From: an uncultured Candidatus Saccharibacteria bacterium | Lineage (GTDB): Bacteria; Patescibacteriota; Saccharimonadia; UBA4664; CAZJNH01 | Direction: 5' to 3' | Length of the DNA: 41,491 nucleotides | Assembly: GCA_964478595.1 (NCBI GenBank) | Contig: CAYZIN010000006.1 | Coordinates: forward strand, 1 to 41,491 | Shown here: piece after piece, positions 39,293 through 41,491 of the stretch | How the letters are laid out: each line of letters starts with the position of its first letter | How positions within the stretch are numbered: the stretch's first letter is position 1 | Position numbers and translations under genes: made by a program | Notes under the pieces: model-generated | What the model saw: only the letters and a program-made list of their open reading frames with translations | The model's database searches: none | Told to the model about the DNA's origin: nothing

Positions 39293-39317
39293 GGGGGAAG
39301 GGTGAGGTAGCGAAAAC

Positions 39318-39824
39318 CTAAGCCGCTTTGGCCCTACGGCGCCGGCTACACCCGCAGTCTTGCCCGTCGTGACGGACTTGGAGTAGCATGCGCTTCCCGG
39401 GCTTGATGGCACGCGGCGCCTGGGCAGTTTGCTTGATGATTCGCGCCGCCATCCGGTCGATCTCGATCTCTGCACAAGTAATTCCAAGGGTGCGGGGTCG
39501 ACCGAGGTCGAGGAGATTGACGAGTTGCGTCTCGCCTTCACGAAAACAGCTGCAACGCTTCCGCTCATGCCTGATGATCGCCCGCTCCATCTCTTCCCGG
39601 CCGACTTGCACGGGCAGGTTCGCGCAGGAGTGGTAGACCATGTGTACCGCGACATCTGTAAAGCTGGAGATAAAACACTCGAGCAGACGAAAAGCGTCTT
39701 TGAGCTGGCCGTTGCCCTCACTCGCCAGATACAGCCGGCTTGGCCATATGAGATGGTGCTCTTCGGTACTGTGATCGCTTGGTGGCGTCCACAGCTCTGC
39801 TGTCGCAGCCAACGCTGCAGGCAC
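39318..39824 (-). CDS. hypothetical His/Cys-rich protein, possibly His-Me finger (HNH-like)
   Basis: AGGAGG 5 nt before the GTG start; EHHLIWP...H..YH pattern; CSC and CGC motifs; basic C-terminus; downstream hairpin. Confidence 0.65.
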   Translation of the reverse strand: MPAALAATAELWTPPSDHSTEEHHLIWPSRLYLASEGNGQLKDAFRLLECFISSFTDVAVHMVYHSCANLPVQVGREEMERAIIRHERKRCSCFREGETQLVNLLDLGRPRTLGITCAEIEIDRMAARIIKQTAQAPRAIKPGKRMLLQVRHDGQDCGCSRRRRAKAA

Positions 39825-39847
39825 GTTTGCCTCCTAATTTGTCGAAC

Positions 39848-39872
39848 AAAAAAACTCCCTCGTTAGGGAGTT
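39848..39872 (-). terminator. intrinsic terminator in the leader of the 168-aa ORF
   Basis: AACTCCCT-aacg-AGGGAGTT-TTTTT on the minus strand. Confidence 0.75.
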
Positions 39873-39940
39873 CGCATGCGGAGAGCACAAAGGCCTGTCG
39901 GCTTAAAGATTCTGCCTGGGCCAAAATACCTCATGCCCGA

Positions 39941-39970
39941 ATTATCGGATAAACATAAGCATAATGTCAA
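39941..39970 (-). promoter_or_regulatory. putative sigma70 promoter
   Basis: TTGACA-N18-GATAAT. Confidence 0.5.
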
Positions 39971-39979
39971 ATTTGTTAT

Positions 39980-40545
39980 ACAAACCGAAGCCCCCCTTGC
40001 TTTCGCTTGGGGGGTCCGGATTCAGGATCTGGTTGACTGGGCTTTCGGCCTTGTTCGGGTATCCCCGCTTTTGGCTTTCGGCCACATCCTTGGCAATAAG
40101 CCCGAGAGCTTCTTGCCTTCGCACGAATTGTCTGGTGCTCCAGACTCCTCGCACACTTGGTGGATTGGTTCTCACCGGATCGTACCCGGTTTTGAATCTC
40201 CGCCAAGCGGACTTTATTCACCAACTGGTACGACAGCGGCGACGCTGCTTTTGTCCGATGGATCCTCGGACATATCCGCGTCTTTCGGAGTACTTCTCGC
40301 CCGGAACTTTGGAGTCAGAGCCTTTCGGCAGAGTCTCTCGTTGGTCCGGACACTACCCTCCCGAGGTTTCCCTCGAGGATGAGCCTGGGAGTTTTACCTC
40401 CTGGAGTTTCCTCCTGCTTCGCAGTTACCTTTTTCCTGAACCGTTTAGCTCGTAAGCTGAGGTGCCGGCTCCGGCTTCGTCGTGAGACGGGCCAAAGCTG
40501 GCATCACAGCCTACAAACAATGTTTGGAATTTAAAGAACGTAAGC
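39980..40545 (-). ncRNA. candidate large, highly structured non-coding RNA (~560 nt), family not recognised
   Basis: About 15 hairpins, several with GAAA loops on the minus strand; two nested long-range helices; dedicated promoter; no credible ORF. Confidence 0.7.
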
Positions 40546-40548
40546 GAA

Positions 40549-40577
40549 AGTATAGTGCTCCAGGCTGTAGGTGTTAA
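40549..40577 (-). promoter_or_regulatory. sigma70 promoter of the large structured RNA
   Basis: TTAACA-N17-TATACT, AT-rich UP-like tract at ~40585-40635 and boxA-like GTTCTTTAAA just downstream. Confidence 0.65.
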
Positions 40578-40649
40578 TCGTTAGAAGTTTCAAAAATTAC
40601 TAAAAATAATTAACTTTTTTTATAAAAATTTTTATCGCTTATGCTTTTT

Positions 40650-40725
40650 TGGTGGGCCCGCCTGGATTCGAACCAGGGACCAAAAGGTTATGAGCCCTCT
40701 GCTCTGACCGCTGAGCTACGGGCCC
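40650..40725 (-). tRNA. tRNA-Ile2(CAU), probable TilS substrate
   Basis: GGGCCCG acceptor, GAGGG-CT[CAT]AA-CCTTT, A73 and CCA. Ile2 versus Met identity is inferred from the acceptor stem. Confidence 0.85.
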
Positions 40726-40764
40726 ACGCGTTATAAGTGTAGCAAAGCTGTTAAAATTGTTACG

Positions 40765-41148
40765 GTGAAACCTCAAAGTAGCATAACGACAAAACTAATC
40801 AATATTGCCGGTTTCGTGTCGGCGATTTATTTGGTAGTGATTTTGTTCCAGACGATTCGCAACAACTCGAGCCTCCAGTCGCAAATCAACCAGATGAATC
40901 GAGACATCGCGCAGCTCAATTCGGAAAAAGCCGATCTTTCTTACCAGATAGCCTACTACCAAACCGATGCCTTTAAAGAAAAAGCCGCTCGGGCCAAGCT
41001 AGGCTTGCAGCAGCCGGGTGAAAACTTACTGATTTTACCGAAAAGTAGCTCCGGTACGCCGGCGCCAGTCCAAGCGGTGACTAAAACAGCAGCGCCAGCG
41101 AAGCCGGAATCTAATTTTTCGCAATGGTGGCATTTCTTATTCGGCTGA
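40765..41148 (+). CDS. ftsB: septum formation initiator (FtsB/DivIC family)
   Basis: TM, coiled coil and EKAARAKLGLQQPGE signature. Confidence 0.85.
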   Translation: MKPQSSITTKLINIAGFVSAIYLVVILFQTIRNNSSLQSQINQMNRDIAQLNSEKADLSYQIAYYQTDAFKEKAARAKLGLQQPGENLLILPKSSSGTPAPVQAVTKTAAPAKPESNFSQWWHFLFG

Positions 41149-41189: not shown

Positions 41190-41265
41190 CGCGGGGTGGA
41201 GCAGTGGTTAGCTCGCAAGGCTCATAACCTTGAGGTCGTTGGTTCGAATCCAACCCCCGCTACCA
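41190..41265 (+). tRNA. initiator tRNA-fMet(CAU)
   Basis: C1:U72 mismatch, CGCGGGG, GAGC/GCTC D stem, CAAGG-CT[CAT]AA-CCTTG and CCA. Confidence 0.93.
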
Positions 41266-41436: not shown

Positions 41437-41491
41437 GGCTGTGTAGCTCAGTGGTAGAGCAGCGGACTCATAAGCCGTTGGTCGTTGGTTC
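41437..41491 (+). tRNA. elongator tRNA-Met(CAU), truncated by the window edge
   Basis: GGCTGTG-TA-GCTC..GAGC-A-GCGGA-CT[CAT]AA-GCCGT-TGGTC-GTTGG-TTC. Confidence 0.85.

Follow-up and report, generated by a model that had tools for sequence, protein, structure and literature searches.

A candidate gene for a highly structured non-coding RNA of about 560 nt, of no catalogued family, between a CAU tRNA gene and tilS in a very small bacterial genome

Locus and predicted features

The DNA analysed was the 41-kb contig CAYZIN010000006.1 (41,491 bases, hereafter the window) of an uncultured Candidatus Saccharibacteria bacterium, part of a genome (G000) of 705,323 bases in 22 contigs that is 93% complete. 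Between a tRNA gene and tilS of this tiny soil bacterium lies an element of about 560 nucleotides (nt) on the minus strand, at 39979-40542, which is a real candidate for a non-coding RNA (ncRNA) gene, likely of a new family and with a very narrow distribution. An earlier note on this DNA had inferred an independently transcribed large ncRNA, perhaps of a new family, in a very reduced genome, and this inference was supported by the lack of any Rfam match in the element, by two syntenic homologues that fold equally strongly and by conserved signals. The parts of the locus are listed below (MFE, minimum free energy; ORF, open reading frame), those of the RNA first and its two neighbours last.

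40549 to 40577, minus strand: predicted promoter P1 of the RNA, with a -35 box TTAACA (40577-40572), a 17-nt spacer and a -10 box TATACT (40554-40549), agreeing with the consensus at 10 of 12 positions
Upstream of promoter P1: an AT-rich tract
40519 to 40542, minus strand: 5' single-stranded leader, its start at about 40542 placed from the position of the -10 box
40448 to 40518, minus strand: 5' hairpin P1 (the "handle"), 24 base pairs interrupted by conserved single-base mismatches, with a tip that varies
40422 to 40442, minus strand: 5' strand of closing helix P2, GGUUCAGGA ... GGU.ACUG, paired with 40039-40019 in both the MFE and the centroid folds
40040 to 40421, minus strand: multi-branched body of about 380 nt in the MFE fold, with abundant GAAA-capped hairpins and four copies of CCGAAAG
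40019 to 40039, minus strand: 3' strand of closing helix P2, CAGU.ACC ... UCCUGAAUC
39979 to 40018, minus strand: 3' GC-rich hairpin, the putative intrinsic terminator and 3' end, with a C6/G6 stem and an inner GC-GAAA-GC, then a weak U tract
40650 to 40725, minus strand: tRNA gene with a CAU anticodon, called by ARAGORN and by Rfam (69.2 bits), positions 1 and 72 paired, 104 nt upstream of the RNA
39941 to 39970, minus strand: promoter P2, directly after the RNA, TTGACA-18-GATAAT, agreeing with the consensus at 11 of 12 positions, upstream of a leader, a small ORF and tilS

The promoter site TTAACA-17-TATACT proposed in the earlier note was thus recovered at 40577-40549 of the minus strand, while two of its labels were not upheld. 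The neighbouring gene had been named tRNA-Ile2; it was taken to be an elongator, either Met or Ile2, because its CAU anticodon is combined with a paired 1:72. A "boxA-like" motif had also been proposed, and this motif was absent from the 16S leaders of all three same-order genomes with an assembled 16S gene (G002, G011 and G007; five genomes searched). In the 1.5 kb upstream of the 16S genes it matched only once, in G002, about 425 nt ahead of the gene and further upstream than the promoter-like sequence. The description of a GC-rich island in AT-rich DNA held on the tRNA side, where the GC content is 0.37 over 40500-40699, and failed on the other side, which beyond the short AT-rich promoter is as GC-rich or richer (0.57-0.625 over 39300-39800). 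The terminator scan showed no terminator-like site on the minus strand between the CAU tRNA and promoter P1, so co-transcription of the tRNA and the RNA is possible.

Folding, strand and coding potential

All the hairpins that had been listed from the sequence, the GAAA-capped ones as well as the C6/G6 stem, were present in the MFE fold of the minus strand. The same fold contained the 5' domain hairpin (40518-40448), closed by UGUAGGCUG/CAGCUUACG, the two nested long-range helices (40442-40434 with 40027-40019, and 40429-40422 with 40039-40031) and the C6/G6 3' hairpin, which spans 40018-39986. This last hairpin was absent from the simple terminator scan because its loop is too long for the scan rule.

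The minus strand of 39970-40550 had an MFE of -239.8 kcal/mol against a mean of -189.0 for 100 dinucleotide-preserving shuffles per strand (z -8.10), and the plus strand of the element had a z of -4.81. In a GC-corrected control, in which 286 windows of 574 nt across the 41-kb window were folded and the energy was regressed on GC, the element gave the most negative residual (-44.7 kcal/mol, 4.0 standard deviations), and the next-ranked windows all overlapped the element or the tRNA cluster. The adjoining GC-rich ORF region (39293-39845) had a fold z of +0.63. Two homologous stretches were available for comparison, one in a same-genus genome (G001, locus L011) and one on a single metagenome contig (L043). 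The G001 stretch had a fold z of -7.28 with the architecture seen in the window, and the L043 RNA had a fold z of -9.04, against -1.43 for its neighbouring ORF. Composition was excluded as the cause of the folding, since the dinucleotide-preserving shuffles gave z-scores of -7 to -9 in three genomes. The word CCGAAAG, reported earlier as occurring four times, was found four times within a 566-nt stretch, all on the minus strand; the whole window contained 11 against a shuffle mean of 9.0, which is chance level.

Predicted hairpins capped by GNRA or UNCG loops made up 4 of 13 in the window, 7 of 11 in G001 and 4 of 10 in L043 on the sense strand, against 2 of 12, 0 of 13 and 0 of 10, respectively, on the antisense strand. 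The sense strand is the minus strand of the window, as the promoter and terminator lie on it, the tetraloops are biased towards it and the alignment fold z-scores (below) are better on it; the doubt about orientation left by the earlier note is thereby settled. That note had also named codon-level conservation of an overlapping ORF as a finding that would speak against an ncRNA. No reading frame common to the three copies was found, the ORFs differing in frame, strand and length. The plus-strand ORFs are 163 and 168 aa (amino acids) long in the window and 155 aa in L043, the counterpart in G001 has only 53 aa, and the lengths of the indels between copies are not multiples of three.

Homologues and distribution

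A blastn search with the whole element in 61 genomes (its own and 60 relatives) matched, besides G000, only G001, over the first 65 nt. In the G001 locus one or two CAU tRNAs precede the RNA, here a non-coding stretch of about 500 nt, and the small ORF and then tilS come after it; L043 has the order RNA, promoter, small ORF and tilS. A covariance model (R1), which covers the 5' 118 nt of the element, gave hits in 2 of 53 genomes of the order and in 2 of 151 sampled genomes of the class, both times just G000 and G001. Of 63 metagenome stretches with the conserved word pattern, R1 confirmed one, L043 (101.3 bits), and a second stretch, L073, was rejected as a homologue (19.9 bits, E 0.2, many broken pairs).

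Two exact-pattern scans of a species-representative genome collection returned 0 stretches each. Viral contigs, which were searched by hairpin pattern and R1, contained 2 stretches with the exact hairpin pattern, neither matched by R1, and the phage and plasmid collections, which were queried by blastn with the element DNA only, gave no match. The element is single-copy in its own genome. A literature search on ncRNA of the Candidate Phyla Radiation (CPR) and Patescibacteria showed no paper that describes such an RNA in these bacteria, although supplements of motif-discovery papers may list further motifs.

Conserved structure

The three copies have in common the -10 box, an invariant 5' run, the 5' hairpin, the closing helix, a terminal GC hairpin followed by U's and the second promoter. 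The -10 box TATACT is identical in L043 and reads TATCCT with a preceding TG in G001. The invariant run of the leader, CGCUUACGUUCUUU, comprises 15 consecutive bases present in all three homologues and begins a few bases upstream of the proposed start. At the equivalent place of the 3' hairpin, a GC stem of 9 base pairs (G001) or 8 base pairs (L043) was found, each followed by a clear U run. Promoter P2 is kept in G001, L043 and G007, the last a genome of the same order and another family.

For 5' hairpin P1 (model R1, alignment A6), all 72 pair cells (24 pairs in three sequences) held standard pairs; 3 pairs were changed on both sides, 4 on one side and 17 were invariant, and when the partner was shifted by 1-3 columns the pairing fell to 31-49%. 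The core of closing helix P2, UUCAG/CUGAA, is invariant across the three homologues. In the G001/L043 alignment this helix has 18 pairs, 5 of them changed on both sides, and in the window its extension has a different sequence that is still paired, at the same position around the core. The RNAalifold energies, compared with column shuffles, had z-scores of -10.2 (G001 and L043) and -8.9 (all three), against -4.75 and -6.44, respectively, for the reverse-complement alignments. An end-to-end alignment of G001 and L043 (544 columns, 61% identity) had an energy z of -8.05. MAFFT alignments contained 21-24 compensatory pairs, a count that carries no shuffle control, and the three-way MAFFT alignments broke 56-61 of the 122-128 predicted pairs.

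The variable body and the small ORF

The first 102 nt of the window element are 86% identical to L043 and 72% identical to G001, and the body of about 400 nt is alignable between G001 and L043. By the TilS N-terminus the window is the closer to L043 (76.9% identity over 130 aa, against 63.6% for G001 with either), and despite this kinship the RNA body and small ORF of L043 resemble those of G001, not those of the window. In the lineage of the window the body and the neighbouring ORF have either been replaced or diverged very fast, while the handle, promoters and terminators were kept. The body now found in the window is itself structured to an exceptional degree and is therefore not decaying DNA.

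G001 (152 aa, L011:452-910, minus strand) and L043 (160 aa, L043:673-1155, plus strand) have homologous small ORFs between the RNA and tilS, and a tblastn search found no trace of this ORF in the window. The slot at 39318-39824 (minus strand) is filled there by a different ORF of 168 aa with overlapping ORFs in other frames. None of the small ORFs of the window, G001 and L043 had a Pfam match. The flanking leader of the small ORF and its downstream terminator hairpin (39292-39261) are conserved.

A contig from a public sequencing run (X2, record 11), about 80% identical to the window, joins 39970 to 40533, and the 562 nt that it omits correspond precisely to the RNA. The contig was aligned to 39941-39970 and 40533-40597 of the window, an alignment that does not show intervening letters, if any; this relative either lacks the RNA or carries an unalignable body.

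Comparison with known families

Rfam 15 at the gathering score gave 7 matches in the whole window, all of them tRNA, so that the check recommended in the earlier note returned no family for the element. When 39700-40800 was scanned with permissive filters at E<=10, there were four matches. Two were the tRNA and its mirror image, the third resembled a terminator and lay outside the element, and the fourth was tmRNA_permuted. The last (11.6 bits, E 8.2, 40488-40677) is a chance-level match anchored on the T-arm of the tRNA that reaches only about 55 nt into the 5' end of the element.

The earlier note had found no hallmarks of RNase P RNA, tmRNA or group I/II introns, and apart from the chance-level match just described those Rfam models were unmatched in the element. 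RNase P RNA was rejected on this ground, and the genome has its own on contig C13 (RF00010, G000:C13:21000-21209, 99.3 bits, cut by the contig end). Likewise, the element did not qualify as a tmRNA: the genome has its own on C4 (RF00023, C4:46727-47066, 104.9 bits), and ARAGORN found no tmRNA in the window. A group I or group II intron was rejected because the models gave no match and the element is intergenic with its own predicted promoter and terminator; the neighbouring ORFs had no reverse transcriptase or homing-endonuclease domain. The rod-shaped 6S RNA has about 180 nt and a central bubble, and the element was rejected as such (RF00013) on its different size and branched fold and on the lack of a match in the element or the genome. 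The RNA of the signal recognition particle (SRP; RF00169, RF01854) had no match in the element or the genome either. Since neither an Ffh M domain nor a GTPase domain of the SRP54 type was found in the genome, no SRP RNA is to be expected, and the element is no stand-in for one.

The G000 and G001 assemblies gave 0 matches for 16S or 23S rRNA, and the RNase P RNA of G000 runs off its contig end, so structured RNA genes are under-assembled in these genome bins.

Neither the ROOL nor the GOLLD model matched, whether in the window at the gathering score or in 39700-40800 at E<=10. ROOL has an average length of 581 nt and is often tRNA-adjacent and possibly co-transcribed with tRNAs, and both GOLLD and ROOL often occur near tRNAs and in prophages, according to Weinberg et al. 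2017 (PMC5737381). The element resembles ROOL as a large bacterial ncRNA of similar length (about 560 against 581 nt) with many multi-stem junctions and an adjacent tRNA, the tRNA adjacency being a matter of context and no proof of membership. It differs from ROOL, which spans several phyla and prophages, in having been seen only in one genus-level lineage of tiny genomes and in joining a conserved 5' hairpin to a body that is unconserved between close relatives. The MFE and RNAalifold structures computed for the element were nested ones. With GOLLD the element has large size, an ornate fold and tRNA adjacency in common, while it had no phage or viral match in the collections searched. GOLLD is larger and often phage-carried. 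Kinship with GOLLD or ROOL beyond size and tRNA adjacency is not supported. Compared with RNase P RNA, there is a similar helix that joins the 5' and 3' ends and closes a multi-branched, GNRA-rich core, and a similar tRNA neighbourhood; in contrast, none of the RNase P models gives the element any score, and most relatives lack it.

Neighbouring genes and observations in relatives

TilS was detected in 36 of the 53 genomes of the order. For 20 of these 36, chosen for room on the contig, the upstream DNA of tilS was collected over about 2.85 kb, and after one 67-nt stretch was dropped 19 remained, of which 13 contained CAU tRNAs. TilS is the enzyme that modifies tRNA-Ile2. In the window three CAU tRNA genes are clustered, at 40650-40725 (minus strand), 41190-41265 (plus strand) and 41437-41491 (plus strand, cut by the window end). 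The middle one has an unpaired C1 opposite U72 and is initiator-like. The own genome has three complete CAU tRNAs and the truncated one at the window end, and relatives keep two or three next to tilS.

The leader of about 90 nt that follows promoter P2 ends in an intrinsic terminator (39873-39852 and a T run), immediately ahead of the ribosome-binding site from which the small ORF would be translated. This layout of promoter, leader, terminator and ribosome-binding site (39843-39970, minus strand) is repeated in G001, L043 and G007, and the leader, which had no Rfam match, looks like an attenuator or a riboswitch-like element.

The form of promoter P2 recurs elsewhere. A word CTTAYG in the spacer, 8 nt before an ATAAT -10 box, was found at 25 sites in 21 of 301 genomes of the class, against 1 hit for the reversed control pattern. 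The sites include window 39941-39966 and, in the same genome, G000:C9:11697-11722 before a pilin-like gene. The form may be a lineage-specific promoter element or operator.

A second unclassified ornate RNA candidate, about 550 nt long, was found in G007 (L089:1040-1600, plus strand), after a CAU tRNA and before a promoter, a leader with a terminator, small ORFs and tilS. It was the sole comparable element among the 19 stretches, and blastn found it in G007 alone among the 53 genomes of the order. GNRA loops cap 5 of its 15 sense hairpins against 0 of 18 antisense, its fold z is -4.09, a GC hairpin and a U run stand immediately behind its GUUCA/UGAAC closing helix, and it had no Rfam match at the gathering score or at E<=10. 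It has in common with the window RNA the slot, a similar length, the GNRA bias and the arrangement of closing helix and terminator, and it differs in having no sequence similarity to the three homologues, no 5' hairpin and a weaker fold signal; homology is not established. Promoter P2, considered as proof of orthology, was weakened as an argument because its form stands before unrelated genes across the class. Body-only pairwise fold z-scores were -3.0 to -4.3 for pairs with the window and -0.5 to -3.5 for the other G007 pairs, and with 21-34% identical columns they were not relied on.

In G002 (L080:1820-2095, plus strand), about 280 nt between a CAU tRNA and the promoter before tilS contain two copies of a repeat of about 130 nt. 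The repeats have T-arm-like words on the opposite strand, were not called by ARAGORN and may be tRNA-derived fragments.

Parts of the SRP were not detected in G000, neither the small or large SRP RNA nor an SRP_SPB or SRP54 GTPase domain. Small SRP RNA was found in 0 of 53 genomes of the order and large SRP RNA in 0 of 5 selected ones (two of them single-contig). For the SRP54 domain there were only weak partial P-loop matches, in 9 of the 53, and at E<=1e-10 it was found in 0 of 121 genomes of the class. The controls in 14 named genomes were positive (small SRP RNA in 12, large SRP RNA in 7 and in 10, both protein domains in all 14).

Interpretation and rival explanations

The reading given slightly better than even odds here is that 39979-40542 of the minus strand is the gene of a stand-alone, highly structured ncRNA of about 560 nt and of no catalogued family, acting in trans as a scaffold or as part of a ribonucleoprotein (RNP). 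The RNA would be transcribed from its own sigma-70-type promoter, possibly with additional read-through from the upstream CAU tRNA, and would end at the intrinsic terminator just before the second promoter, which serves the downstream genes. It would consist of three parts, namely the conserved 5' leader with the 24-bp handle, the long-range helix that closes the GNRA-rich body of about 380 nt, and the terminator hairpin. The constant handle may be a specific recognition site for a protein or RNA partner, and the body may be a compact fold whose sequence is free to change fast. Like other large ornate bacterial RNAs, the molecule would then act as a stable RNA scaffold or RNP component.

The element may instead be a giant cis-acting leader or operon element of the tRNA-CAU/tilS unit that controls downstream read-through, processing or stability, which is considered unlikely. 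The RNA is co-oriented with the tRNA, the small ORF and tilS, no terminator stands between the tRNA and promoter P1, and the weak U tract after the 3' hairpin of the window makes read-through plausible. For G001 and L043, moreover, RNAalifold predicts a helix between the invariant 5' leader and the 3' side of the terminator, an anti-terminator-like alternative, and the word GCUUACG occurs twice, either copy of which could pair with UGUAGGC. However, that pairing was not reproduced at the same place in the window, the terminators of G001 and L043 are good ones, and in all three genomes the strong promoter P2 separates the RNA from the downstream genes. The ORF behind it also differs between the window and L043 while the 5' domain is kept. 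A role in trans is favoured because a strong separate promoter follows the terminator and because the downstream ORF changes while the handle stays.

Only a small chance is likewise given to the RNA being part of a variable cassette lodged at the tRNA, a mobile or selfish remnant or its cargo, with body and small ORF swapped by recombination. The empty tRNA-side slot of most relatives, the discordance between TilS (window nearer L043) and the G001-like body and small ORF of L043, and the X2 contig that omits 562 nt would all fit this, and proximity to tRNAs and a place in prophages are also frequent for GOLLD and ROOL (PMC5737381). Yet no integrase, transposase or reverse transcriptase was found nearby, the small ORFs matched no Pfam family, the flanks carry no direct repeat derived from the 3' end of the tRNA, and nothing similar was found in the viral contigs, phage records or plasmid records. 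The element is not repeated in the genome. The side of the X2 joint that is 30 letters long has low identity, which places it in an unreliable class of joint. Conserved segments (handle, promoter P2, terminators) alternate with variable ones, a pattern that uneven divergence fits equally well.

It is very unlikely that the stretch is non-functional or decayed DNA that folds through its composition, or a fast-evolving small protein gene. The narrow distribution, the unconserved body and the origin of all the runs with the sequence from DNA would agree with it, as would the long plus-strand ORFs of the window (163 and 168 aa) and L043 (155 aa). Against it, the shuffle z-scores are -7 to -9 in three genomes and the adjacent GC-rich DNA folds unlike the element; the tetraloop bias is strand-specific; the -10 box, 5' hairpin and terminator are conserved; and the plus-strand ORF ends after 53 aa in G001, with indels that are not multiples of three.

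The most improbable alternative is that the element belongs to a known family (ROOL, GOLLD, RNase P-like, SRP, 6S or an intron remnant) but has diverged so far that the Rfam models miss it. The length close to the 581 nt of ROOL, the tRNA adjacency like that of ROOL and GOLLD (PMC5737381) and the roles of SRP and 6S RNA, left without an assigned RNA in this genome, could suggest it. Against it, the element had no score at E<=10 save for tmRNA_permuted, a chance-level match at the 5' edge; the genome has its RNase P RNA and its tmRNA elsewhere; SRP proteins were undetected; and relatives that lack this RNA would need it if it were a universal one.

Several observations weigh against the element being a stand-alone ncRNA that acts in trans. 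Just three homologues were found, all in one genus-level lineage. The body of the window could not be aligned with that of G001 or L043, only short chance-level words and the hairpin motif at 40067-40052 recurring, and this lack of conservation with the closest relative, L043, argues against a precise tertiary fold as the selected feature. In 6 of the 19 tilS-upstream stretches a same-strand CAU tRNA immediately precedes tilS and leaves no space for the RNA; the slot is empty in most relatives and the RNA is therefore not essential to the order. Four public runs containing the sequence all gave DNA contigs, from one soil study, and none is RNA; their contigs showed zero variants inside the element. 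In the G001/L043 alignment, RNAalifold counted 11 compensatory pairs among 101, against 7.1 +/- 2.5 (maximum 12) in shuffled alignments, which is not significant, and covariation statistics from three sequences are weak. The earlier note had proposed to test covariation among homologues; two homologues were found, compensatory pairs are present in P1 and the closing helix, and the overall count stayed within the shuffle range. As this count alone is not significant, thermodynamics and helices P1 and P2 carry most of the case. With three sequences from one lineage and absence from most relatives, the RNA is a well-founded candidate and not a discovery.

Significance

Bacterial ncRNAs of more than 500 nt with complex folds are rare. 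To our knowledge, each known large class (RNase P, group II introns, OLE, GOLLD, ROOL, raiA) shows unusual biochemistry or architecture. The combination of a constant handle with a fast-changing body is unusual among such RNAs, and the retention of a large RNA in a 0.7-Mb genome with little non-coding DNA suggests that the cell pays for it. A further reading, speculative and quite improbable at present, is that the stand-alone RNA represents a new class of modular ornate RNA of ultra-small bacteria, in which a partner-bound constant handle is joined to a body that is exchanged or diversified among close lineages, with unrelated bodies in the same slot elsewhere, as in G007. If this were true, the body would be the variable, interaction-determining part of the molecule, for instance in the self-assembly of RNA-only particles or in encounters with hosts or phages.

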